A DNA stretch of 61,618 nt, counting the filler. It is 5 parts of 5 records of this genome, joined end to end, with 100 filler letters (N's around TTAATTAATTAA, not from the genome) between each part and the next. Parts side by side here need not be neighbours in the genome. Positions count along the whole stretch, not along the records: positions 37,722 to 55,308 come from SRR20825010_4441; 4 more parts are not named here. The stretch is one strand, 5' to 3'. Below the pieces are notes generated by a model. It searched no databases, was not told where the DNA came from, and saw only the letters and a list, made by a program, of their open reading frames with translations. Positions 44,989 through 56,368 of the stretch are shown one piece after another. Numbering within the stretch: position 1 is the first letter of the stretch; each line of letters opens with the position of its first letter. The translations under genes were made by a program, and so were the position numbers.

Positions 44989-46107
44989 TCATGGAGTCAA
45001 CGTTTCCTCGGAATCTTCAGTGGAGGGTAAAAACACTTCCCTGCGAAAAATGGCGTGCGAAACCAGCACTCGCCGGTACGGACGAATTCCGATCGCATCG
45101 CCTGTCAATTCGGGGCTGGTCATCGCTCCATGAATGCCGAGCCCATACTTACCCCCGTAAGTTCCTGCGTAGACCGATTCGCCAAGAGTGTTCTCAAACA
45201 CGAGTGGTTTGCTATCGAACAGCGTGCCCTTCATGGCTTCAGGATTGAGTGATTCGACGGCATCATCGTTGGCGACATTGGGGTCACCGCCGTTCGGCAC
45301 AAACGCACCACGGTCTTGATAGCTGCTCAACCAAGTCGACTGGGCGGGGTAGTGAACACGAAGTGCCACGACGCCCTTGTGTGGTTCAGGCTCCGTCGGA
45401 TCAAGTGGGTCGGCGGGAACCGCCGATTCATTGGTCAAAGAAAACGGATCTGGGTTGGCTCCCGAATCGTCGCCCGGCAATTCTTCTGTGTCGATTTCCT
45501 CGACCACACCAACCCAACGAATTCTCTCAGCACCACCACCGTTGTTGTGCCCCTCTTTTCTCTCGACAACGAGAGGGATCTGAACGACGTAATCGTCTGC
45601 GACATAGTCGGGATACTCGATCACCGACTCATCGGGCTCACCTTCAGAGCGTTCCAACAACGCACCGGGATACCGCATCAAACGACGATAGCCACGATCG
45701 TCATCATCGAGCGTTGGTATACGCTTATCGATAACATCGTCACGGATGTAGAGAACCGCCAACTGCTGATTCAACAGAGGCATGCGTGGAACCACATCTT
45801 GGAAAAAGTTGTAGTCAGGATTTTCCTCTTCCAGCTCATCCAAGTCGATCACCAACCAACGATCGTCATAGACACGACGGCGGACAATTTCTTGGTCGAG
45901 TGCATCCTCGAACGTCTCATCAAATGGCAGCGGCGTTTGCGAAAGCTCACGGGCGCCCACATTGGCCGCTTGTTGAATTTGCCCCGCCGCGTAGATCCAA
46001 ATCCCAAACGTGATCGCGCCACCGATGAGCATGTACAGCACCAACGCGACGAGCCCAAACTCGACGAGTGCTTGACCGGATCGTTTGTGGCAGCGACTTC
46101 GCATCAC
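44989..46107 (-). CDS. tadE: TadE-like pseudopilin with a large acidic C-terminal domain
   Basis: KRSG-QALVEFGLVALVLY...AANVGAR prepilin motif. Confidence 0.8.
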   Translation of the reverse strand: MMRSRCHKRSGQALVEFGLVALVLYMLIGGAITFGIWIYAAGQIQQAANVGARELSQTPLPFDETFEDALDQEIVRRRVYDDRWLVIDLDELEEENPDYNFFQDVVPRMPLLNQQLAVLYIRDDVIDKRIPTLDDDDRGYRRLMRYPGALLERSEGEPDESVIEYPDYVADDYVVQIPLVVERKEGHNNGGGAERIRWVGVVEEIDTEELPGDDSGANPDPFSLTNESAVPADPLDPTEPEPHKGVVALRVHYPAQSTWLSSYQDRGAFVPNGGDPNVANDDAVESLNPEAMKGTLFDSKPLVFENTLGESVYAGTYGGKYGLGIHGAMTSPELTGDAIGIRPYRRVLVSHAIFRREVFLPSTEDSEETLTP

Positions 46108-46143: not shown

Positions 46144-46569
46144 TCAGACGAGGAAGTGAACGAAACCGACGTAGCCAATGAACCCCGCCGCGATGGCGGG
46201 CACGTAGGCGTAGTCTCGCTCGCCGCGAAGCATCGCGATGAGAGAGAGCACGCCACCGGCGATGGCCATTCCAAACAACACAATCAAAATCCCAACTGGT
46301 CCGACCAACATCCCCAAAGCAATGATGAGTTTGCCATCGCCGCCACCCAGCTTTGCAAATCGAAACAAGGCATATGCGATGGCAAGTCCGACCATTCCGC
46401 CGGCCAGTACCCAAAAGATTGACAACCCAAGCAAGCCAACCAACGAACTTGCGATCGCAACCGTACCGATCAATACGGAGATCCAATCAGGGATCTCGCG
46501 AGTACGCAAATCATGCAAGCAGGCCCAAACCAACAAGCAAGCGCTCATCGATGCGATCAACAAAAACAT
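46144..46569 (-). CDS. cpaA: Prepilin peptidase CpaA/TadV (A24)
   Basis: HDLRTREIPD, LGGGDGKL, YVPAI. Confidence 0.9.
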   Translation of the reverse strand: MFLLIASMSACLLVWACLHDLRTREIPDWISVLIGTVAIASSLVGLLGLSIFWVLAGGMVGLAIAYALFRFAKLGGGDGKLIIALGMLVGPVGILIVLFGMAIAGGVLSLIAMLRGERDYAYVPAIAAGFIGYVGFVHFLV

Positions 46570-46723: not shown

Positions 46724-47068
46724 CTATGGGGTAGGACCGCCTGATTCGAAGATCAAACCGCCGAAATCAGTTGGAGCGTCCAAGCCCACATTGGCGCCCA
46801 AACGCTCCCCACCGCTGGCGATTGTGGCTGCATCAAGCTCGATTCCTCCTTCAGCCCCAACTGTTGTTTCGATGAGTTTTCCACTCGTAAATGGAGCGTT
46901 GTCATCATCGTGTGCACCCGGCAGAATCGCTGCGGTTGCACCGATCAAATCGCTGGTCTTGTGACCAAACACTGAGATCGCAGCGGCACAAATCAAAGCC
47001 ACACCGGCGATGATCAAACCGTACTCAACCAGGCCTTGGCCCTTCTTGTTACTAAAGAACTTACGCAT
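46724..47068 (-). CDS. flp: Flp-family major pilin with C-terminal extension (114 aa)
   Basis: MRKFFSNKKG-QGLVEYGLII Flp motif; AAGGA upstream of ATG 47068. Confidence 0.9.
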   Translation of the reverse strand: MRKFFSNKKGQGLVEYGLIIAGVALICAAAISVFGHKTSDLIGATAAILPGAHDDDNAPFTSGKLIETTVGAEGGIELDAATIASGGERLGANVGLDAPTDFGGLIFESGGPTP

Positions 47069-47189: not shown

Positions 47190-47246
47190 CGTGGTGGACG
47201 AGGCAACGAGGCCTGAGCAAGAGGACTCGTTGCCTCGTCCACTACG
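47190..47246. repeat. GTAG-type REPIN (another family)
   Basis: CGTGGTGGACGAGGCAACGAGGCC, 9 nt spacer, GGACTCGTTGCCTCGTCCACTACG. Confidence 0.8.
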
Positions 47247-47485: not shown

Positions 47486-47914
47486 CTAAGCGGAGATCGC
47501 CGGTGGCCCGCGAGGCTGCGGGATCGAAAGAAGAGTCGCCAACAAAGGGCGAACAGCAGGGACGCTGGTGAGTTCCGATGCATACTCGGTCGGAAGAACA
47601 ACCACCAAGTCCCAAGTCACACCGACTGGGCTCGCCAATGATTGGCAAATCCCGCAGGTATCGTGATCGTGAGGTGCGTCTGAATCTTGCGAGTGAGGAA
47701 CCGTTTCCGAAGCATCTTTGGACGATGCATCTGATTCCGTCACATGGTGATGACACCCGTGCGGACAAACAGAAACTACGTCGCTGGCGTTGTCATCCGC
47801 ATGCGAATGGGACTCGCTATCACAGGTGGCCACATGCAACCAAGCCGGAGCGTGACCAAAAACGATCAAGCTGCAGAGCAGGCTAGCGACGAGGGGCCGG
47901 AACAGCGAAGTCAT
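47486..47914 (-). CDS. His-rich DUF2946-like protein 1 (CxxC and C-terminal RGPP)
   Basis: Hydrophobic N-terminus, CPHGCHHH, HDHDTCGICQS, PRGPPAISA-stop; ATG 47914. Confidence 0.8.
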   Translation of the reverse strand: MTSLFRPLVASLLCSLIVFGHAPAWLHVATCDSESHSHADDNASDVVSVCPHGCHHHVTESDASSKDASETVPHSQDSDAPHDHDTCGICQSLASPVGVTWDLVVVLPTEYASELTSVPAVRPLLATLLSIPQPRGPPAISA

Positions 47915-47955
47915 GAAAGCGACGTTCGATTCAGAGAGTTTTAAATTGTTGCAAA

Positions 47956-47977
47956 GTGGTCCGACCAAAGACGATTG
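47956..47977. promoter_or_regulatory. TGGTCCGACCA palindromic motif upstream of DUF2946-like gene 1
   Basis: GTGGTCCGACCAAAGACGATTG, 20/22 identical to 49992-50013. Confidence 0.65.
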
Positions 47978-48151
47978 CTGCCTAGTACGATGACTACACC
48001 CCATCCGTTCGTCAAGTTCATCGTCGAAAACTTTAAAATTTCGACGTTTTTACGCCGCACGTTCCTTGGTCACCATGTTGGGCCGTCAGCTCAAACCGGA
48101 CGTTGGCCAATCGTCTTTGCCTACCACTTGCTGCCACGTTGAATTCGGTGA

Positions 48152-49729
48152 TCAATCGCCGATGACAAACAACCGAGTGCCGGTTCGAACAATGATTTGC
48201 TCACCCGATGCCGCGACTCCGTACACAATCGGATCACGGGAGGAGGCCGCGGAGTTCTTCCGCCGTTCAGCGAAACTCTTGGCCATCGCATCGATCTCCT
48301 GCTCATCGAGCTTGCCATCGGCGTTGGTGTCGATTCGCCCGATCATGCCTCGAAACATCTCGGGAATTTCGTCGCCTTCCAAGACACCATCCCCGTTCTG
48401 ATCGCCGGCCTTGATCCGGGCGGCCATGCCTCCACCGGGACCTCCGGAAACTGGCGAAGCCTTTTCGCCACCACCATGTTGCCCACCATGCCCGTGCGAG
48501 CCACCGGGCTCACCCGAAAACTCCTGGTACGTTTCGGGCGTTGGCGGAGTGTCTTGATCCCACAACCAATTGCTGGCCAGCTTTCTGAACTCGGGCCCCG
48601 CAGCGATCACATGACACTGACCGTTCTTGCAAAAGAAGTAGAGCGTTCCATCGGAGACAATCGGAGTCGCCCAACAATCTCCATCGATCCGTTGGCGGTA
48701 GATGATCTCTCCGCTTTCCACGTCCAAGCAATGCAGAACATTGGCCTTGTTCAAGAAATACGCGTGCCCACTGGCAACGACCGGGCTGGCGTATTCGCAG
48801 ATCGCTTTGTCCGCACGCCAGGCAACATGAGGCTGTCCATTTTCGATTCTAGAAAGATCCAAACAGCAGTTGGACCGCACGTCCCCATCACCGGTAAACT
48901 CTGGCAATCGGGCGCCAATCAGCAACAAATTGCCAGCCAAAGTGGGCGAGGGCACCGAGTTGCCCTCCAGGCCATCGAGCGACCACAACACGTCGCCGTT
49001 GGACGCGTCATAGCCGGTCACGCTTCCTCCGCTGCTGACGATCAGTTGCTCCACGCCATTCACTTCAGCGACAATCGGTGACGACCAGGACTTCGACGAT
49101 TCGCGATCGACGGTCCACGACGACTTGCCCGTCCGTTTCTCGATGGCGGTCAAAAAAGATGGTCCACCATGCTCCAAATTGAGAAACAAATGGGTGGCGT
49201 TCTGGGCCAACGAAGCTCCCACACCGTGCGAATTGTCGAACTTGCCAGTCGATTTGGATACATCGCGAGCCCAAAGCAATTTGCCTTGCAGATCAACGGC
49301 AACCAAATCTCCCGTTTCGAAGAAGGCATACACTCCTTCGTCGTCCACCACTGGCGTGGGAGCCGCACGAGCGTTCATGTAATTGGATGGATGCCCGTGC
49401 GTGGATTCTTTGACATAGGTCCAACGAAGAGCCCCCGTCGCGAGATCGTGACATTGCACCAAGCAGGATTCTGACATCGAGCCTTTGACGCTGGTCGTGT
49501 AGACAGCGTCCTTGTGAACGATAGGAGCCGACTGCCCATATCCATCAAGCTCCCGCTGCCAAGCGATCCCTGAATCTCCGGCCCACTTTGTGGGAAGGGA
49601 GGCGGTTCCATGCGAGGAACCGCCGCCCCGAAAAGAGGTCCACTCGGCATGCGAGTTGGTTGTCAAAACCAAGGCGAATGGCACCACGCAAAGCGTCACC
49701 ATCGCGAAACAGATGTTGTTCCGTTCCAT
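48152..49729 (-). CDS. Secreted PQQ-like (BamB-type) beta-propeller with a Gly/His and EF-hand insertion
   Basis: Signal peptide, EWTSFRG, GQSAPIV, WSSPIV, YASPVV repeats; DQNGDGVLEGDE and DTNADGKLDEQE; ATG 49729 with AGGAAG upstream. Confidence 0.85.
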   Translation of the reverse strand: MERNNICFAMVTLCVVPFALVLTTNSHAEWTSFRGGGSSHGTASLPTKWAGDSGIAWQRELDGYGQSAPIVHKDAVYTTSVKGSMSESCLVQCHDLATGALRWTYVKESTHGHPSNYMNARAAPTPVVDDEGVYAFFETGDLVAVDLQGKLLWARDVSKSTGKFDNSHGVGASLAQNATHLFLNLEHGGPSFLTAIEKRTGKSSWTVDRESSKSWSSPIVAEVNGVEQLIVSSGGSVTGYDASNGDVLWSLDGLEGNSVPSPTLAGNLLLIGARLPEFTGDGDVRSNCCLDLSRIENGQPHVAWRADKAICEYASPVVASGHAYFLNKANVLHCLDVESGEIIYRQRIDGDCWATPIVSDGTLYFFCKNGQCHVIAAGPEFRKLASNWLWDQDTPPTPETYQEFSGEPGGSHGHGGQHGGGEKASPVSGGPGGGMAARIKAGDQNGDGVLEGDEIPEMFRGMIGRIDTNADGKLDEQEIDAMAKSFAERRKNSAASSRDPIVYGVAASGEQIIVRTGTRLFVIGD

Positions 49730-49991
49730 TGAAGTTCTTCCTGCATCGTTGGAGCTGAGCGGGCAAATCGCACCGCGTGAAAAAGGGGTTGACCGGCAGT
49801 ACTGAGCTGCCGGAGTGTTCAGATTCGCAACGCCATTGCCTGGCAGCACGAACGCCAATTCCAACATCGCGAGGCGTGATTCGCGTTCAGGCGGAAGCCC
49901 GGGTACGAGTCGCTTTGCAGCAAAAATGCGTAAGAAGTGGGTCGGAACATGACAGCCGCAAGGAGCGAAAAAGTCGACGAAGTCGTGTCAG

Positions 49992-50013
49992 GTGGTCCGA
50001 CCAAGGACAATTG
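49992..50013. promoter_or_regulatory. TGGTCCGACCA motif upstream of the beta-propeller gene
   Basis: GTGGTCCGACCAAGGACAATTG. Confidence 0.65.
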
Positions 50014-50185
50014 AAGAGTTTCGGTACGATTGCGACCGGAGCGAAATTCGTCAACCGTTTGAGATGAAATATGTGTGTGGTTTTCAAGCATGCTCCCATT
50101 TCTTGCACGGATCAAAATCGATCTGACGGACGCTGCGAACCTTTTCGATTGACAAGCCGTAACGTCGCGAGAACAATCATTGCAT

Positions 50186-50198
50186 CCTTGGTCGGACC
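50186..50198. promoter_or_regulatory. Same motif upstream of DUF2946-like gene 2
   Basis: CCTTGGTCGGACC is the exact reverse complement of GGTCCGACCAAGG at 49994-50006. Confidence 0.65.
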
Positions 50199-50206
50199 GT
50201 TGATTC

Positions 50207-50761
50207 ATGCCTGAATCAATCTGCAGTGCATTCAGGCTTCTTCCGCTTTTCAACGTTGGCAACCGACCCTTGGCGTCGTTTCGGATCCTCACCGTCTACC
50301 TCACACTGGCTGCCTTGCTGTTTGGCAATGTTGCAGGTTGGGTTCACGTTGGATGCTCGTCGCACCAATCGGGTTGCTGCGTTTCTCACTGCGACTTGTC
50401 AGCACGATCGCATGACAAATCGCATCGCCACACGCACGCCAGCCACACGCACGATCACGGTGAGCACGGCTGTTGCCACCACGCTCACACCAGCGCGGAC
50501 GAACACGAAACAACCTGCCAAAGCGACACAAGTTGCGTTTCGACCGAGTCAGAATCGGATCAGCCGTCCGAGCCACATGACTCGGATCGTTGTTCGATTT
50601 GCCAGAGTTTCTTTGCGTCGCGTCATGCCGTCTTTCTTTGGGACACCACGGTTCAACTGGAACCGTTGACCGCCAACCGCGACGTGACGATTGCGGAAAA
50701 CGCATTCGTCCCGCAAGCGATTTGCCATCTTCATCGGGTACGGGGTCCGCCCAGCGTCTGA
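50207..50761 (+). CDS. His-rich DUF2946-like protein 2 (CxxC and C-terminal RGPP)
   Basis: TM segment, HRHTHASHTHDHGEHGCCHHAH, PHDSDRCSICQS, RVRGPPSV-stop; start may be TTG 50270. Confidence 0.8.
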   Translation: MPESICSAFRLLPLFNVGNRPLASFRILTVYLTLAALLFGNVAGWVHVGCSSHQSGCCVSHCDLSARSHDKSHRHTHASHTHDHGEHGCCHHAHTSADEHETTCQSDTSCVSTESESDQPSEPHDSDRCSICQSFFASRHAVFLWDTTVQLEPLTANRDVTIAENAFVPQAICHLHRVRGPPSV

Positions 50762-50803
50762 CGCTGCGCGATTGTTTTCCCTGTTTCGCTTCCGTACCCG
50801 AGG
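50734..50803 (+). promoter_or_regulatory. Predicted SD-sequestering mRNA stem
   Basis: TCGGGTACGG (50734-50743) pairs with CCGTACCCGA (50792-50801); GAGG at 50800-50803; ATG 50813. Confidence 0.65.
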
Positions 50804-50812
50804 CGCGTTTCC

Positions 50813-52063
50813 ATGGCAGTTGTCCATGAAATGCCTAGGTCCGTGAGTTGGTTGTCTCGTGTGATGACAACCGACTTTTGTCCCTGGGCGAATCGTTTTG
50901 TTTATTGGCTCAAAGAGCCGATCGGTTGGTTCGTTCTCGCAACCGCAATCAGCGTGATCGTTGGTCTGTACCTCAGCCCAATCGGCTGGGTCCTGGCCGC
51001 TGCGTTGACCGCGATCATCGTTGTCGGCATGGCGTGGCCTTTGGTCGCCGTGCACGTCACCACATGTGAGTTGCGTCCCGAGGCGGACTCCGTTCACGAA
51101 GGCGATGCATGCCGAATGCTCGTCGCCGTCCGCAACCGACTTCCCATTCCAGTTTGGGGATTGGCCGTCGAAGGCTACCTGGACTGCGAAGGCGATGAAG
51201 CGGTTCCTACCGTGGGACTGGCGTGCGTCGCACCGTTGTGTGTCAGTGAATATGGAATCACCGTCCATCCGTCGTTGCGAGGTCACTACCCCATTCAGTT
51301 GCCACAAGTCGCTTGTTCCTTTCCATTTGGAATTTGGACGGCGCGTCGCAACTTGACGACGATGAAGTCGCTCACCGTCTGGCCCAAGATTTATCCGGTG
51401 CAGGGCGTGTGCCCCATCATCGGACTGACCAGCACCGATCAGGGCGACGGCAATCGCGGCGGTCGCAGCGGAGACTTCATTGGAGTACGCGACTATCGAC
51501 GTGGCGATTCAGCGAAACACATCAACTGGGTCGCATCCGCCAAGGTGGACTCGTTGGTCGTGACGGAACGTGGTGGCCCGCAGTCGGTTGAACTCGATGT
51601 CTTCATCGACACCACGATGCATCCATCCACCGCGATGTCGCTCTCGTGTGACGAACACGCCGGGCCAACTGGACGCGAACTGCTGGCCAATCGAATTCGC
51701 ATGGCCGCCAGCGTCTTGATCAACCTGCAGCAATCCGGTGTCCCGATGCGAGTGACGATTGGTTCGCAAAGCCTGCGACTGGCGAGAGGCAGCCAAGGCA
51801 GGCAGCAAATCCTCAACGCTCTCACCGAGATTCCCGCCGATGGAACCGCCGCTTTCGCCCAGCGGAAACGGACCGGCAAGAACGCAAGGATCGAGTTTTC
51901 ATCCGATCGTTTCGGCAGCGAAATCGTGCAAGTGATCGATCCTCGCGGCGGACGCCGAGCTGGCGGGCGATCGGTGATGAAACAGATCGAATCGTGCGAT
52001 GCACTGGCCGACCAGATTTTGTGTTTTTGGACGGAGGTGCGTGATGCAGACGCCGCCGCGTAG
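50813..52063 (+). CDS. DUF58 family protein (MoxR-associated)
   Basis: GDFIGVRDYRRGDSAKHINWVASAK; FPFGI; two N-terminal TMs. Confidence 0.9.
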   Translation: MAVVHEMPRSVSWLSRVMTTDFCPWANRFVYWLKEPIGWFVLATAISVIVGLYLSPIGWVLAAALTAIIVVGMAWPLVAVHVTTCELRPEADSVHEGDACRMLVAVRNRLPIPVWGLAVEGYLDCEGDEAVPTVGLACVAPLCVSEYGITVHPSLRGHYPIQLPQVACSFPFGIWTARRNLTTMKSLTVWPKIYPVQGVCPIIGLTSTDQGDGNRGGRSGDFIGVRDYRRGDSAKHINWVASAKVDSLVVTERGGPQSVELDVFIDTTMHPSTAMSLSCDEHAGPTGRELLANRIRMAASVLINLQQSGVPMRVTIGSQSLRLARGSQGRQQILNALTEIPADGTAAFAQRKRTGKNARIEFSSDRFGSEIVQVIDPRGGRRAGGRSVMKQIESCDALADQILCFWTEVRDADAAA

Positions 52064-54260
52064 ACGAAGAGAAACCATCCTTCTAGCGATCCTGGCGATC
52101 GCCTCCGTGCTGCCGTTGCGATTCTATGTTGAGTCGCGACCTTGGTTCCTGGCCGAATTCGGAACGCTGCTAGCACTCTTTGTTGCCGTGGAACTCGTCA
52201 AGACATTCGGTGCGGGATCAGGCAGATCGAAACTCTTGATGAGTTCCGCGACGACGCTGCTCGCGATTGCGCCCATTCTCTTTGCATTCTTCGCTCGATC
52301 GTTCGGCTCACCAATCGCGTTTGAGATGTCGACTCTATCGGCCTTTGGTTCGGTCTCGCTCGCCGTCGCGATCGCAGCCAAGACCGACCGCACTCGAGCC
52401 ATGTCATTGGTCGCCAGTGGCTTTCTGGTGTTGTTCGCCACATCCATCTCCGAACATTCGCAAGCGGTTTGGATCGCGGTTGCTTGGATGAGCGTTTGTG
52501 TTTGGCACTTGGTCGCCAATCACTGGGAGAAACTGGATGTCTGTTTGCCTGACTCCGTACGCCCCACCGTGGGAGTTCGCCCGGCCAGCGTGCTGATAGC
52601 GGTCGTCTTATGCATCGCCGGTGGACTGGCGGTTCGAAATCATGTCGGTCCCGCCAACCGAATGACCAACGGTGTGATGCCCACCAGTGGCGGTTCCAAA
52701 TGGTCGGACCCTGCGGCACGTTCCGGCGTTGGATCCGGCGACGCAGCCATCGCGGCGAAAGATCATGCCGAGTCCTTTGGAGCAGTCGAGTCTGAGATCT
52801 TTTTGGAATCCACCGAGTCGTCACTCTTCGACATGGTCAACGAGATGATCGGTGAACCCAAACAGAAAATGAAGTGGGACCGTCGCCAAGCGATGGGGAA
52901 CGAAAACTTCATCCCCATGCACGATCAAGCCGCCAAAAGTGAAAAAGGAGGCTCTTCATTCAGCACCGATCGCATGCCACCGAAGAAACATCGACACTTT
53001 GAAGATGCGAAAGAGAACGCGGTGATTCAGTGGGATGGCCCGACTGGCATTCGTCTGGCAATGCAACGTTTTGACACCTTCGATGGCGTCGACTGGACCA
53101 ATTCCGTCGATCGCTCCAACGACAAACTGAGCCAGCGAGAGATCGACCAAAACGTTTGGTTCTTCGATCCCAAGTTGGAATCCAGAGCACTGAGCGACAG
53201 CGATCTGGTGACGGTCAACTTGTTGAAAGTCCTGCGTCTGGATTCGACACGGTTCCCCGCGCCGATGATGACGGCGGGACTCCATATCAAGGACGTGAAC
53301 CGTCAAGACTTCTTCGGGATCGAACACGATGGTTCGTTGTTCATGCCCGAACGAGACAAGATCCCGCCGTTGACAGTGGTGAACTTGGCTTCGATCCAAG
53401 TGATGGAAGACGAACTGTGGAATCGGCTTCCCAATTGCCAAGCCAAGGTGGATGCAAGCGAACAGCCAACATCCGATTCCACCCAACACCCTTACCAACA
53501 ACTGCAGGACATCGTCGAACAATTGCGAACCGAGTTCACTTTCGATCGCAACACACCAACCCATACAGACAATCCCGTCGAGGAATTTTTGCAAACACGT
53601 CGCGGCAGCGATCATCTGTTCGCAACCGTCGCGGCATTGAAGGCACGTGAGATCGGACTGCAATCTCGATTGGTGACGGGGTTCTATGTTCCGCCAGACG
53701 CCTACGACATCTCGGCGGGGCATGCGAACATCACTCCCGAAGACATCCACTTCTGGGTCGAAATCAAGCTCGATGATGGACGTTGGTTTGAACTGGAACC
53801 GACGCCCGGATACCAGCAACCCGTTTACACACCCTCGTTGTGGCTGAGCACCAAACGCTTTGCCGCGGCTCATTGGATGCACGGTCTGCTGATGGTTGCA
53901 CTGGGCGTGGTGACATTCCTCACACGACTGATCTGGATCGATTGGCTACTGACGGCAGCCTGGTCACTTTCGCTGCTGCTGCCTTCTCGAAAACAGCTCG
54001 GAATCGCGATGCGAATTGTGGAAACCCGTGCGAGCTTGATCGGCAAGGCTCGCCCGACCGGGAAACCACAACGCGATTGGCTGGAAGCTCTCGTCGTTCG
54101 CGATCTGCAAATGCGTGATCACGTCCAGCAATTCTGTGACGTCGCCGACCAAGCCATCTTTGGAAACCCCGCACCGATCGATCGGCGCCGACTCAATTCG
54201 CTGGTCCGTGCCTTGAATACAAAACAACTGAAATCGATGACAAACGAGACAATGGCATGA
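52044..54260 (+). CDS. Membrane transglutaminase-like (TgpA-like) protein lacking the canonical Cys
   Basis: Multi-TM N-terminus; FDTFDGVDW, FL..RRGSDHLFA, RLVTGF, HFWVEI, WFELEPTPG; GGAGG before ATG 52044. Confidence 0.8.
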   Translation: MQTPPRRRRETILLAILAIASVLPLRFYVESRPWFLAEFGTLLALFVAVELVKTFGAGSGRSKLLMSSATTLLAIAPILFAFFARSFGSPIAFEMSTLSAFGSVSLAVAIAAKTDRTRAMSLVASGFLVLFATSISEHSQAVWIAVAWMSVCVWHLVANHWEKLDVCLPDSVRPTVGVRPASVLIAVVLCIAGGLAVRNHVGPANRMTNGVMPTSGGSKWSDPAARSGVGSGDAAIAAKDHAESFGAVESEIFLESTESSLFDMVNEMIGEPKQKMKWDRRQAMGNENFIPMHDQAAKSEKGGSSFSTDRMPPKKHRHFEDAKENAVIQWDGPTGIRLAMQRFDTFDGVDWTNSVDRSNDKLSQREIDQNVWFFDPKLESRALSDSDLVTVNLLKVLRLDSTRFPAPMMTAGLHIKDVNRQDFFGIEHDGSLFMPERDKIPPLTVVNLASIQVMEDELWNRLPNCQAKVDASEQPTSDSTQHPYQQLQDIVEQLRTEFTFDRNTPTHTDNPVEEFLQTRRGSDHLFATVAALKAREIGLQSRLVTGFYVPPDAYDISAGHANITPEDIHFWVEIKLDDGRWFELEPTPGYQQPVYTPSLWLSTKRFAAAHWMHGLLMVALGVVTFLTRLIWIDWLLTAAWSLSLLLPSRKQLGIAMRIVETRASLIGKARPTGKPQRDWLEALVVRDLQMRDHVQQFCDVADQAIFGNPAPIDRRRLNSLVRALNTKQLKSMTNETMA

Positions 54261-55204
54261 GTGTGGCAACCCAACAAGAAGATCGAACACAAATCGCGTT
54301 GCAAGCAATACGCGACCAATTGGGAAGCGTCCTGCTGGGCAAATCTGAGCAGATCGAAATGGTCATCGCCTGCTTGCTCGCACAAGGCCACCTGCTACTG
54401 GATGATTTGCCGGGCACGGGCAAGACAACGCTGGCAAAAGCGCTCGCCGATTGCCTCGGTGGACGATTGGCCCGAATCCAGTGCACGCCGGATTTATTGC
54501 CAACCGACGTGACGGGATTCAACTTGTTCAATCAAAAGACCCGCGAGTTCGAGTTCCATCCCGGACCGGTCTTCGCCGATGTGCTGTTGGCAGACGAACT
54601 GAATCGCACCACGCCTCGGACTCAAAGCGCGTTGCTGGAGGCGATGGCGGAACGGCAGGTCACGATTGATTCGGTACCGCATTCGTTGTCCGAGACCTTT
54701 CTCGTCATCGCGACGCAAAACCCGATTGACTCACACGGTGCTTATCCGCTGCCCGAAGCTCAACTGGATCGCTTCACCATCAAACTTCAGATCGGATACC
54801 CCGACCGCGAAGCTCAACTTGGAATTCTTGAAAACGCAGCACGAGCCGACAGCGTCAACGAGCGAGCATGCAACACGTTGTCGTTGACGGAACTGAGGCA
54901 GATTCAACAGCAAGTGCAAACGACATCGGTTCATCCGAAGGTCCAGGGATACTTGGTCGACTTGGTCGAGGCGACTCGCAACGACCCGGCCATTCAGCTG
55001 GGAGTGAGTCCGCGAGGCATGCTGCTGTGGCAACGAATTGCCCAAGCCTGGGCGGTGCTCCAAGGACGCGACTTCGTGACACCCAGTGACGTTGCCAAAG
55101 TCGCTCGCCCGGTATTGTCGGTGCGATTGCTGACCATGGCGGACGACTCCGATTCGGTGATCGATCGAATCATGACCCAAGTTCCCGCGCCGGAGTACAA
55201 GTGA
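54257..55204 (+). CDS. moxR: MoxR-family AAA+ ATPase
   Basis: PGTGKT, RIQCTPDLLP, DELNRTTPRTQSALLEAM, ATQNP, LPEAQLDRF. Confidence 0.95.
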   Translation: MSVATQQEDRTQIALQAIRDQLGSVLLGKSEQIEMVIACLLAQGHLLLDDLPGTGKTTLAKALADCLGGRLARIQCTPDLLPTDVTGFNLFNQKTREFEFHPGPVFADVLLADELNRTTPRTQSALLEAMAERQVTIDSVPHSLSETFLVIATQNPIDSHGAYPLPEAQLDRFTIKLQIGYPDREAQLGILENAARADSVNERACNTLSLTELRQIQQQVQTTSVHPKVQGYLVDLVEATRNDPAIQLGVSPRGMLLWQRIAQAWAVLQGRDFVTPSDVAKVARPVLSVRLLTMADDSDSVIDRIMTQVPAPEYK

Positions 55205-55280: not shown

Positions 55281-55308
55281 ACCCTCCCCTCGCTTCGCTC
55301 GACCCTCC
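55281..55308. repeat. Truncated CCCTCC-type repeat at contig end
   Basis: ACCCTCCCCTCGCTTCGCTCGACCCTCC, cut by the linker. Confidence 0.45.
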
Positions 55309-55408
55309 NNNNNNNNNNNNNNNNNNNNNNNNNNNNNNNNNNNNNNNNNNNNTTAATTAATTAANNNNNNNNNNNNNNNNNNNNNNNNNNNNNNNNNNNN
55401 NNNNNNNN
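55309..55408. other. Artificial contig linker
   Basis: 44 N + TTAATTAATTAA + 44 N. Confidence 0.97.
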
Positions 55409-56368
55409 GATCTCGCATTAGCCTTACGACTGGGAGATAAGGAAGCGACCCAACGCGCATTGAAAATCGTTGCCGATAAAAACGCGGACCGTCCGACTCG
55501 TCTGACTTACATCGAAATCCTGGGGCAGTTAAAAGTGAAGGACGCTGTGGGCCCGTTGACGGCAATTCTTTCTTCATCGGGAGCTGACACACACTCATTA
55601 AAACGGGTCGCGTTGCAGGCTCTGATGAACTATGAAAACCCGAGCATCGGAAAAAGTATTCTGGGTCGTTACCACAGTACCCTGCTCGACGAACACGATG
55701 TCCGCAGTACGGCCCAGCGGGTGCTCGCCAGTCGCAAAGCGTGGAGCAAACAGTTCCTTTCAGAAGTTGACGCGTGGCGGATCAAAGCGAATACGATTCC
55801 CCTGGATGTCGTGCAGCAGATGTCGCTGCATGATGATCCCGAGATCAAAGCCAGCATTAAGAAGCACTGGGGCAAAGTCCGCGGTTCTACTCCTGCAGAA
55901 AAACAGCAGGAAATGAAACGGGTGGCCGAGTTGGTCAAAGCGGGTGGCGGTGAATTCTCAGCCGGGAAAGTCCTGTTCAACAAAACATGTGCCGTCTGTC
56001 ATACACTGTACGGCGAAGGGGGCAAAGCCGGTCCCAAATTGACGGGTTACGAACGCGACAACCTGGACTTCATGCTGCTGGCAGTTGTTGACCCGAGTGC
56101 CGCCATTCGTGAAGAGTTCACTAACTTCCTGGTCGTCACAGACGATGGCCGTACGGTGACAGGTCTCATCGATGAGCAGACGACCAAAACACTCACGCTG
56201 CGTGATGTCAAAGGGCAGACCGTGCTCATCAATAAAGACGAGATCGAAATCCTCAAAGCATTGGACCTGTCACTGATGCCTGATGGTCTGACGAAAACCA
56301 TGAGTGATCAGGAAGTGAAAGACCTCTTCAACTATATCATGAGCCGCACACCCAACGGCGGAAAATAA
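55409..56368 (+). CDS. 5'-truncated PVC-type HEAT-repeat / c-type heme-binding protein
   Basis: CAVCH, GPKLTG, DPSAAIREEF, SLMPDGL C-terminal heme domain typical of planctomycetes. Confidence 0.85.
   Translation, partial: DLALALRLGDKEATQRALKIVADKNADRPTRLTYIEILGQLKVKDAVGPLTAILSSSGADTHSLKRVALQALMNYENPSIGKSILGRYHSTLLDEHDVRSTAQRVLASRKAWSKQFLSEVDAWRIKANTIPLDVVQQMSLHDDPEIKASIKKHWGKVRGSTPAEKQQEMKRVAELVKAGGGEFSAGKVLFNKTCAVCHTLYGEGGKAGPKLTGYERDNLDFMLLAVVDPSAAIREEFTNFLVVTDDGRTVTGLIDEQTTKTLTLRDVKGQTVLINKDEIEILKALDLSLMPDGLTKTMSDQEVKDLFNYIMSRTPNGGK

Follow-up and report, generated by a model that had tools for sequence, protein, structure and literature searches.

Arrest leaders related to the locus

The closest described systems are found in the DUF2946 family (PF11162). 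CruR (Bp2923) of Bordetella pertussis, described by Roy et al. (mBio 2022, PMC9426467), carries a CxxC motif 45 residues from its arrest motif, give or take one or two residues (PMC9426467). A second report (PMC12992588) confirms the CruR arrest, with Pro3 and Pro4 in the P and A sites, and describes RGPP both as the strongest arrest core and as the most avoided tetrapeptide in bacterial proteomes. A second DUF2946 protein, CutF of Rhodobacter capsulatus (Ozturk et al., bioRxiv 10.1101/2022.11.11.516240 and 10.1101/2025.02.05.636593), is proposed to stall near its C-terminus and thereby melt a stem-loop masking the next gene's ribosome-binding site.

The window, i.e. the whole 61,618-nucleotide stretch of DNA analysed here (filler included), contains at positions 50207 to 50761 (+) an ORF that compares closely with these leaders. 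Like CruR, it heads its operon and encodes a small protein, here presumably exported or anchored, that has an invariant CxxC and, shortly before the stop, an R-x-P-P core; the distance from CxxC to core is about 45 residues in CruR and 46 here. It differs from CruR in its core (RGPP rather than RAPP), in falling below the Pfam threshold, in its spacer (51 nt with a helix near the Shine-Dalgarno (SD) sequence, against 162 nt with Rho-dependent termination) and in its predicted target, which is DUF58-TGase-MoxR (TGase, transglutaminase-like protein) rather than a TonB-dependent transporter. CutF resembles it in having a short spacer and a stem-loop that runs from the last leader codons to the next gene's ribosome-binding site, and acts in cis, as the present leader would. 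However, CutF carries CxxxC and GPPPRL (an EF-P-sensitive polyproline), a cleaved Sec signal and a multicopper oxidase target, CutO, where the present leader has CxxC and RGPP; the leader also has two nested helices plus a hairpin at the AUG, and its conserved helix abuts the SD instead of covering it.

A further likeness is to the Sec/YidC-monitoring peptides SecM, MifM and ApdA/ApdP (RAPP; Fujiwara et al. 2024, PMC10987492), which share a RAPP-like C-terminal core and, as presumed for the leader, a membrane-targeted N-terminus, and in which the stalled ribosome opens a downstream SD-masking structure, as we propose for the leader. Unlike these, the leader has a conserved CxxC and a Cys/His-rich region, and the genes downstream of it are DUF58-like, transglutaminase-like and MoxR genes, not components of Sec/YidC.

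The leader ORF and its relatives

The ORF encodes 184 amino acids ending HRVRGPPSV, with a TGA stop at 50759-50761. Judged by profile and relatives, it appears to be a divergent member of DUF2946, the CruR/CutF family, and most likely a sensor-leader of the CruR/CutF kind, aimed at a new target, in marine Planctomycetes. Translation bears out the features listed in the preliminary description of this DNA, namely a putative transmembrane segment, a His-rich linker, CSIC and RVRGPPSV before the stop. The hydrophobic N-terminal segment (about I27 to V46, 50285..50344) is a 20-residue stretch that follows an Arg and precedes a conserved GWVHVGC; read from the translation and conserved in relatives, it is presumed to be an N-in membrane anchor or export signal. 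It is followed by a variable Cys/His-rich linker (50345..50590) that holds about 15 His from residue 47 to residue 128 and in which alignment shows H47, C50, C89, H124 and D125 to be conserved, by the CSIC motif (C129-C132, 50591..50602) and by the RGPP arrest-core codons (50741..50752), all on the plus strand.

Kinship with DUF2946 rests on several comparisons. The leader ORF scores 17.3 bits against PF11162 (cut-off 23.7, E=0.0084) in a match that reaches the end of the profile, and PF11162 is the sole recurring Pfam family among the relatives, matched by 51 of 147 at E<=0.01 and by 7 of 23 in a smaller set. A paralog within the window scores 37.5 bits, over the 23.7 cut-off, and aligns to the leader by BLASTP at E=5e-12; in NCBIfam it has a weak match to CopL_fam (17.1 bits, cut-off 40), and an NCBIfam search of the leader ORF itself gave no match. 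The RGPP-only subfamily counts 452 representatives at E<=0.001. A leader profile found no match in 151 genomes (one genome plus 150 of the same family), a set that is probably not kin and hence carries no information.

Six residues are invariant across 147 sequences (C129, C132, R179, G180, P181 and P182), and both Cys of the CxxC are also kept in 23 of 23 sequences of the smaller set. RGPP followed by one to eight residues forms the C-terminus of 154 of 160 relatives (two residues follow it in the window ORF), and in 151 of those 154 the R lies 44-46 residues from the CxxC. Among distinct C-termini taken from loci, the spacing from CxxC to RGPP is 43-46 in 67 of 67, with 46 in the window ORF. 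All four features together, i.e. CxxC, RGPP, the 44-46 spacing and a short tail, occur in about 150 of 160 relatives. The arrest-type leader first proposed from the sequence agrees with the kinship to DUF2946, a family with experimentally demonstrated arrest leaders, with the invariant RGPP, set 1-4 residues from the stop, and with the CruR-like distance from CxxC to R.

Operon and surroundings

Directly downstream of the leader lie three genes on the same strand. The first, at 50813..52063, encodes a DUF58-like membrane protein of 416 amino acids, identified by a weak Pfam match (E=0.015) and by an atlas comparison in which the 30 nearest named clusters are all DUF58 (score 0.98). The second (51999..54260) encodes a transglutaminase-like membrane protein of 753 amino acids (Transglut_core, 2.6e-21) and overlaps the DUF58 gene by 65 nt, and the third (54257..55204) encodes a MoxR-type AAA+ ATPase of 315 amino acids (AAA_3, 3.1e-60), which shares an ATGA overlap with the TGase gene. 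The same three genes directly follow the leader in 49 of 59 planctomycete loci, so the arrangement noted in the window is conserved. No paper linking an arrest peptide to MoxR was found in the literature searched, in keeping with the earlier view that this type of target is new.

By position, the leader is the first gene of the operon. A promoter-like site, TTGACA-17-AACAAT (50149..50177, +; 10 of 12 consensus matches), lies 30 nt upstream of the leader ATG and, by consensus match, is the only one in 49800-51000; a consensus scan found no internal promoter in the spacer between leader and DUF58. Rfam returned no family at E<=1 for 49800-51200. An SD-like GAGG (RAGGTG in most relatives) lies at 50800..50803 (+), 9 nt before the DUF58 ATG at 50813.

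A paralog with the same C-terminus as the leader heads an unrelated Tad pilus locus. This bears on the possibility that the leader product persists in the membrane as an anchored subunit that binds metal, or as a chaperone, and works with DUF58, TGase and MoxR. RGPP would then serve structure or sorting, and the RNA pairing would follow incidentally from the conservation of both sequences. The relatives are larger than typical leaders (140-220 amino acids), and the conserved NVAGWVHVGC together with several conserved Cys and His points to a folded site for a metal; elsewhere, MoxR/VWA systems serve to insert metal cofactors. Against this stand the paralog at the head of a Tad locus and the cis action of the similarly built CruR and CutF as nascent chains, and the synonymous-site covariation and the result of recoding, both given below, are unexpected for a by-product. 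We regard the subunit explanation as very unlikely.

The spacer between the leader stop and DUF58 is 51 nt in the window; among 45 loci it is at most 60 nt in 22 and 94-233 nt in 23. Short spacers are rich in C and U and poor in G (C 31%, G 22%, T 34%, A 12%, against C 27% and G 28% locus-wide), and no terminator-like site was found in 49800-51000. These features would suit a read-out of the CruR type, where an arrested ribosome shields a pyrimidine-rich spacer from Rho and its release leads to Rho-dependent termination before DUF58, with the helices serving pausing or RNA stability. The longer spacers of 23 loci and the lack of an intrinsic terminator agree with such a read-out, and the leader shares the R-x-P-P type of core and the CxxC spacing with CruR, for which this mechanism was demonstrated (PMC9426467). 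Against it, the spacers of the window and of the 22 loci in the shorter group are short for a rut site, compared with 162 nt in CruR, and the covariation of the stall-site codons with the stretch before the SD is left unexplained. Rho-dependent read-out as the main mechanism is improbable; it could coexist with unmasking of the SD.

RNA pairing around the leader stop

A repeat search recovered the two arms that had been pointed out in the preliminary description: 50734-50743 (TCGGGTACGG) and 50792-50801 (CCGTACCCGA) are 100% complementary over 10 nt and lie 48 nt apart, and G50744 and G50745 stand opposite T50791 and T50790 as two further G-U pairs. The 5' arm of this helix (helix 1, 50734..50745, +) comprises codons H176 to G180, i.e. 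the last base of CAT followed by CGG, GTA, CGG and GG. Its 3' arm (50790..50801, +; TTCCGTACCCGA) lies directly 5' of the SD-like GAGG with a 2-nt overlap, and the motif CGTACC-N-RAGGYG occurs once in the window. The overlap with GAGG stands in part, since G50800 and A50801 are in the perfect stem and the other two G are outside it, pairing only in the minimum free energy structure, with the CC of TGCC at 50723-50726.

Nested within helix 1 is an inner repeat (50748-50758 with 50760-50770, 91% complementary) that forms a stop-codon hairpin (helix 2, 50748..50770, +). The predicted core CAGCGT-ctg-ACGCTG is found at 50752-50766 (50752-50757 with 50761-50766), within the RNAfold structure, and the leader stop lies in the loop and 3' arm of the hairpin. 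An intrinsic terminator at this hairpin was considered and rejected, as it lacks a T-run and the region has no terminator-like sites. A pyrimidine-rich linker (50767..50789, +) joins the helices, and in some relatives its CCCC can pair instead with the GGGG of the R-G codons. Further downstream, the DUF58 start codon is held by a small hairpin, CAUGG-N7-CCAUG (50812..50828, +), in which its partner is the codon for His5. This codon is CAT in 38 of the 45 loci and CAC in 1, compared with a ratio of 188:156 in the remainder of these genes.

RNAfold of 50720-50830 returned exactly the two nested helices (-38.7 kcal/mol), with a z-score of only -1.72 against dinucleotide shuffles, 11 of 200 shuffles being equally good; against these shuffles alone, the fold of the window is borderline. 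A better-matched null was synonymous recoding of the last codons (300 recodings), where the native duplex with the region before the ATG reached -27.0 kcal/mol, against -16.5±3.0 for the recoded sequences (p=0.003). The unpaired fraction of the SD window was 0.10 for the native and 0.31 for recoded sequences (p=0.033). On the better-matched nulls, i.e. recoding and the register in relatives described below, pairing in the window exceeds chance.

Partial conservation and covariation of the helices

Recoding gave p<=0.05 in 20 of 45 loci, and only 18 of the 45 have at least 5 of the expected pairs between the stall-site codons and the region before the ATG. The pairing signal is thus seen in about half of the 45 loci (18-21), and it is absent from the most distant of them. 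In a MAFFT alignment of the 22 short-spacer loci, 78.9% of helix 1 cells are paired, against 74.0±1.3 in shuffles (none of 500 as high), and sliding the register by 1-3 columns reduces this to 40-59%. Pairs with changes on both sides number 6 in this plain alignment, where 4.3 are expected (26 of 500 shuffles), and RNAalifold on it gives neither helix; what it returns is the AUG hairpin and a GGGG:CCCC pairing of 4 bp (-1.56 kcal/mol).

Because differences in loop length misalign the stop hairpin in the plain alignment, a covariance model was built. In the resulting alignment of 29 loci, which is fitted to the proposed structure and whose loci are related to one another, 12 of the 20 pairs of both helices change on both sides (3 of 500 shuffles), and the covariation score is 0.251 against 0.175 (0 of 500). 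The third base of the Arg codon forms G-C in 11 of the 29 loci, A-U in 9, G-U in 5 and other combinations in 4; the Val codon has an unpaired third base in 12, and the pair adjoining the SD is mismatched in 18. Individual examples include the sister loci L019 and L029, in which Val GTA>GTG is accompanied by CGTAC>CTCAC in the 3' arm, and an RNA-library contig of a relative with a double change, 50752 C>A plus 50766 G>T, that is compensatory in helix 2. Compensatory change is seen for both helices in the fitted alignment, with the reservations that the signal extends to about half of the 45 loci and that RNAalifold was negative.

An attempt to carry helix 1 over the SD at one constant register failed, the SD-covering extension showing no conserved register; the part of the helix that is conserved is located immediately 5' of the SD, abutting rather than covering it. 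The SD window is less unpaired than in recoded sequences in 25 of 31 loci. The sequencing-run data consist of contigs only, with one metatranscriptome run contributing a small share and parts of the stretch uncovered; a single RNA-library contig, from a relative at about 90%, bridges leader and DUF58, which does not amount to proof of a transcript.

A proposed arrest-opened switch

Set against the observed family features, synteny, helices and partial covariation, we infer leader arrest, its signal and the direction of regulation as follows. The reading that we consider best, and somewhat more probable than all others taken together, is that a ribosome arrested at an R-x-P-P core like that of CruR unmasks the DUF58 start in the manner of CutF. 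The leader product would act as a nascent-chain sensor, Cys/His-rich and anchored at its N-terminus, and its translation would halt at the C-terminal RGPP. In free mRNA, codons 50734-50745 would pair with 50790-50801, directly 5' of and into the GAGG, the stop-codon hairpin at 50748-50770 would close the loop and the small hairpin would hold the DUF58 AUG, so that the initiation region of DUF58-TGase-MoxR would be largely closed. By analogy with the CruR toeprint (PMC12992588), the P site of the stalled ribosome would hold the Pro181 codon (50747-50749) and its A site the Pro182 codon (50750-50752), and the footprint would span about 50732-50762. With the 5' arms of both helices taken up by such a ribosome, the 3' arm and the SD would be free, so that a second ribosome could start on DUF58, and translation of TGase and MoxR would follow through coupling of the overlapping genes. 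On release of the arrest, the leader ribosome would terminate, the structure would re-form and the operon would be turned down. Again by analogy with CruR, the arrest may be released when the CxxC region, having just left the tunnel, binds metal or folds, or else by membrane translocation.

In computed folds, masking the footprint of the stalled ribosome raises accessibility before the ATG from 0.09 to 0.46 in the window, and averaged over loci from 0.28 to 0.36 only. The modest average gain would fit plain translational coupling, where the helices make DUF58 translation depend on passage of the leader ribosome, RGPP takes no part in sensing and the protein serves a different purpose. Any ribosome on the last 10 codons would open helix 1, the bases covered at termination are largely the same ones, and the downstream genes are themselves coupled by overlaps; since a terminating ribosome would open the helices too, arrest adds only time. 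Coupling of this kind does not account for the invariance, one to eight residues from the stop, of a core as strongly avoided as RGPP (PMC12992588), nor for its fixed distance from an invariant CxxC, the signature of an experimentally studied family, and we consider it unlikely. Arrest-dependent unmasking of the DUF58 start is thus the interpretation that we retain. The interpretation first put forward for this DNA is partly supported, the in silico checks having agreed with it within the limits given above.

Implications for the MoxR module and the DUF2946 family

The kind of device is already described, because in CutF a stall already melts an SD-masking stem-loop; what is new is only the target and the subfamily. 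With this leader, the targets of DUF2946 arrest leaders would no longer be confined to metal transporters and oxidases, and the family gains a large RGPP-only subfamily. The locus is also a natural example where the codons of the arrest core would double as the anti-initiation arm, and the covariation at synonymous sites lends itself to direct testing.

MoxR AAA+ ATPases with DUF58 and transglutaminase-like partners occur in many bacterial phyla, and to our knowledge neither the substrate nor the signal of this module is known. A cis-acting sensor-leader from a copper-reading family would indicate the condition under which the MoxR module is required. Mutations of R179, the CxxC or the stems, with DUF58 expression as the read-out, would give a simple genetic entry to the module.

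As a tentative proposal, which we hold to be possible rather than probable, Pirellulaceae may carry two related RGPP arrest-sensor leaders, often divergently transcribed, one gating DUF58-transglutaminase-MoxR via the arrest-opened RNA switch and the other upstream of the Flp/Tad pilus locus. Through the fixed CxxC-46-RGPP geometry, the two may sense one common periplasmic cue, be it metal, the thiol-redox state or the load of membrane insertion, and so form a translational sensing node. If the two leaders do share a cue, this node would tie envelope remodelling by the MoxR module and surface pili to it, and, if true, it would provide the first physiological handle on the purpose of the MoxR-DUF58-TGase module.

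Family membership of the leader

The leader ORF (50207-50761, + strand) encodes 184 residues ending in HRVRGPPSV, with a hydrophobic segment at about I27-V46 (arginines before, GWVHVGC after), a linker rich in histidine (about 15) that also contains several cysteines, CSIC at C129-C132 (50591-50602), RGPP codons at 50741-50752 and a TGA stop at 50759-50761. Its match to Pfam DUF2946 reaches the last positions of the profile and scores 17.3 bits (E=0.0084), below the cut-off of 23.7. A second ORF of 172 residues in the window, the paralog (47486-48004, - strand), ends in PRGPPAISA and clears the threshold with 37.5 bits; the two proteins match at BLASTP E=5e-12 and share a TM segment, W-x-H, HD-x-D-x-CxxC and RGPP. 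Word-indexed searching returned 21 relatives of the leader, those with names all planctomycete, and 1.84 billion representatives searched with a profile yielded 452 at E<=0.001. RGPP plus one to eight residues forms the C-terminal end in 154 of the 160 relatives examined, none of which has a RAPP ending, and the last CxxC lies 44-46 residues from the Arg in 151 of those 154. C129, C132 and RGPP are invariant across 147 aligned sequences; the one Pfam family that recurs among these is PF11162, matched by 51 at E<=0.01.

CruR and CutF, both studied experimentally as arrest leaders, belong to DUF2946. PMC9426467 places the CruR RAPP three residues from the C-terminus and 45 residues from CXXC, a distance kept within one or two, and describes an arrest that prevents Rho-dependent termination and is relieved by copper, with "a few" homologs in Planctomycetes. 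PMC12992588 reports RGPP to be the arrest core that is both strongest and most avoided, and CruR to arrest with its two Pro codons occupying the P site and the A site. The arrest core and CxxC spacing of the leader are CruR-like, with RGPP where CruR has RAPP. Given the DUF2946 matches, the invariant motifs, the spacing and these family facts, the leader is, as judged from sequence, a divergent, RGPP-only branch of the family, in agreement with its preliminary description as an RGPP arrest-type leader.

The paralog lies about 420 nt upstream of genes for a Flp-type pilin (46724-47068), an A24 prepilin peptidase (46144-46569) and a TadE-like protein (44989-46107), all on the - strand, and 10 other loci likewise have a co-directional A24 peptidase homolog after the paralog. 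As at the leader, a local hairpin spans its post-PP codons and stop. It may be a second arrest leader, with the Tad pilus locus as putative target. The strong inverted repeat GTGGACGAGGCAACGAG...CTCGTTGCCTCGTCCAC between paralog and pilin gene (47195-47245, - strand) is a possible terminator or repeat element. The leader and paralog genes are separated in the window by that of a PQQ-like beta-propeller protein ending in an EF-hand (48152-49867, - strand); homologs of this protein are similarly placed in three loci (L002, L010 and L017), and in other loci the RGPP genes diverge directly from one another.

Operon context and distribution

Scanning one genome per species identified 59 loci with a leader homolog, all in Planctomycetota and mostly in Pirellulaceae, and in 49 of them it is directly followed by counterparts of the three genes downstream of the leader in the window. 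These encode a DUF58-like membrane protein (weak Pfam match, E=0.015, with 30 of the 30 nearest named atlas clusters being DUF58), a transglutaminase-like membrane protein and a MoxR AAA+ ATPase (both by Pfam), and they overlap, by 65 nt and then by ATGA. A promoter-like site precedes the leader ATG by 30 nt; 49800-51000 contains no terminator-like site, and no Rfam family is hit in 49800-51200 at E<=1. Just past the MoxR gene is an N run (about 55300-55400, seen as X in ORF translations), beyond which a cytochrome c domain protein is encoded (55460-56368). The leader profile has no match in 151 genomes, namely the one sharing 40% of sampled words with the window and 150 of its family; this nearest genome by shared words is probably misleading as kin of the window.

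RNA structure in the window

The preliminary description had the stall-site codons pairing with the region before the DUF58 ATG (50813, + strand). Its arms proved exact to the base, a repeat search returning 50734-50743/50792-50801 as 10 nt of 100% complementarity; the hairpin that it placed around the stop was likewise recovered (50748-50758/50760-50770, 91% complementary, stop codon inside). Folding 50720-50830 with RNAfold gives both helices, nested (helix 1, 50734-50745 with 50790-50801; helix 2, the stop hairpin, 50748-50770), plus a small hairpin joining the ATG to the His5 codon of DUF58 (CAUGG-N7-CCAUG, 50812-50828). By shuffle control alone this fold is unremarkable: its -38.7 kcal/mol corresponds to z = -1.72 and 11 of 200 shuffles are equally good. 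Among 45 loci, 38 encode His5 by CAT and one by CAC (six have no His), as against a CAT:CAC ratio of 188:156 in the rest of the DUF58 genes, which indicates nucleotide-level selection for pairing with the AUG. The leader sequence TGCCAT (50723-50728, codons C-H) is in addition an exact complement of ATGGCA at the beginning of DUF58 (50813-50818), a match that may be coincidental or may mark another anti-start element.

Conservation and covariation

In 45 loci (the window and 44 homologous planctomycete loci) the leader stop after RGPP and the start of DUF58 could both be placed, with spacers of 45-60 nt in 22 and 94-233 nt in 23. Most carry YCGTACC-N-RAGGTGCGC-N4-5-ATGGC before the DUF58 start, a motif whose exact form occurs once in the window. 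With the 22 short-spacer loci in a plain MAFFT alignment, 78.9% of helix 1 cells form standard pairs (74.0±1.3 shuffled, 0/500), falling to 40-59% when the partner is shifted by 1-3 columns; double-sided changes in 6 of 12 pairs are not significant (26/500 shuffles), and RNAalifold recovers neither helix. The stop hairpin is misaligned in this alignment because its loop lengths differ. With a covariance-model alignment (29 loci at E<=1e-9), 76.4% of cells in both helices are paired (69.4±1.0 shuffled, 0/500; helix 1 79.4%, helix 2 70.1%), 12 of 20 pairs have double-sided changes (3/500) and the covariation score is 0.251 vs 0.175 (0/500). The signal is carried by synonymous positions: Arg codon third base (G-C 11, A-U 9, G-U 5, other 4), Arg codon first base (C-G 17, A-U 4, other 8) and Val codon third base (A-U 13, G-C 3, G-U 1, other 12). 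These 29-locus counts are supportive rather than proof, since the loci are kin and their alignment leans to the model.

Independently of the alignments, 300 synonymous recodings per locus were compared for duplex formation with the pre-ATG region. The window's native duplex reaches -27.0 kcal/mol (-16.5±3.0 recoded, p=0.003), and native duplexes beat recodings at p<=0.05 in 20 of 45 loci. Arms pair more strongly with their cognate partners than with those of other loci, in helix 1 (-14.7 vs -12.4 kcal/mol) and in the stop hairpin (-10.3 vs -7.4 kcal/mol, cognate in the top three in 14/45). Coupled changes are found in the sister loci L019 and L029 (Val GTA>GTG with 3' arm CGTAC>CTCAC) and in a contig of a roughly 90% relative (C>A at 50752 together with G>T at 50766, the two positions that close the stop hairpin). 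Four loci (L004, L006, L012 and L021) have extra hairpins inside the stop-helix loop, with the helix arms kept. Long added hairpins, after the stop hairpin or within its loop, occur in these and in L007, L013 and L015 (GTGGCATAGGCTTC...GAAGCCTATGCCAC in the latter three), with the spacer grown to 100-190 nt; they look like repeat-element insertions tolerated by the switch.

The pairing is not uniform. At least five expected pairs between stall-site codons and the pre-ATG stretch are seen in only 18 of 45 thermodynamic ensembles; in the MFE structures of the clade with Arg = AGG, the R-G codons pair instead with a spacer CCCC run, and the SD with CCTCC about seven codons upstream. Arm-pairing and recoding tests give no signal in the most distant of the 45 loci. 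The proposed overlap with GAGG (50800-50803, + strand) is partial: G50800 and A50801 alone lie within the perfect stem, the conserved core stops just 5' of the SD, and an SD-spanning extension in fixed register is not conserved. The SD window is nevertheless predicted to be mostly paired (unpaired 0.23 native vs 0.32 recoded, lower in 25 of 31 loci; 0.10 vs 0.31 in the window, p=0.033).

Proposed mechanism and novelty

By analogy, the leader most likely works in a CutF-like manner. We infer that arrest with Pro181 at the P-site codon would place the ribosome over about 50732-50762 and, because this footprint contains the 5' arms of both helices, would leave the 3' arm and SD open for DUF58 initiation; on release the structure would re-form. 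Masking the footprint raises pre-ATG accessibility from 0.09 to 0.46 in the window, but only from 0.28 to 0.36 as a mean of all loci. Plain coupling of DUF58 translation to that of the leader is possible, as are a Rho-type read-out acting on the spacer, which is C/U-rich, and a structural role for the leader protein as a stable product. Under the CutF-like mechanism, the CruR-like arrest core and CxxC spacing suggest that the nascent chain senses just outside the exit tunnel, with release by metal binding, folding or translocation, and the releasing cue would turn the operon down.

The CutF text has no mention of MoxR, DUF58, Planctomyc or transglutaminase, and the EMBO J main text has none of MoxR, DUF58, transglutaminase or AAA, with "Planctomyc" once, in a figure legend listing phyla; members might be listed in the supplementary tables of the CruR, CutF and EMBO J papers. 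The literature searched holds nothing pairing MoxR with "arrest peptide", or combining Planctomycetes, DUF58 and MoxR. The preliminary interpretation is supported as far as sequence analysis reaches. The kind of device is already known; the novelty lies in the target and in the large subfamily, RGPP-only and planctomycete, that has it.
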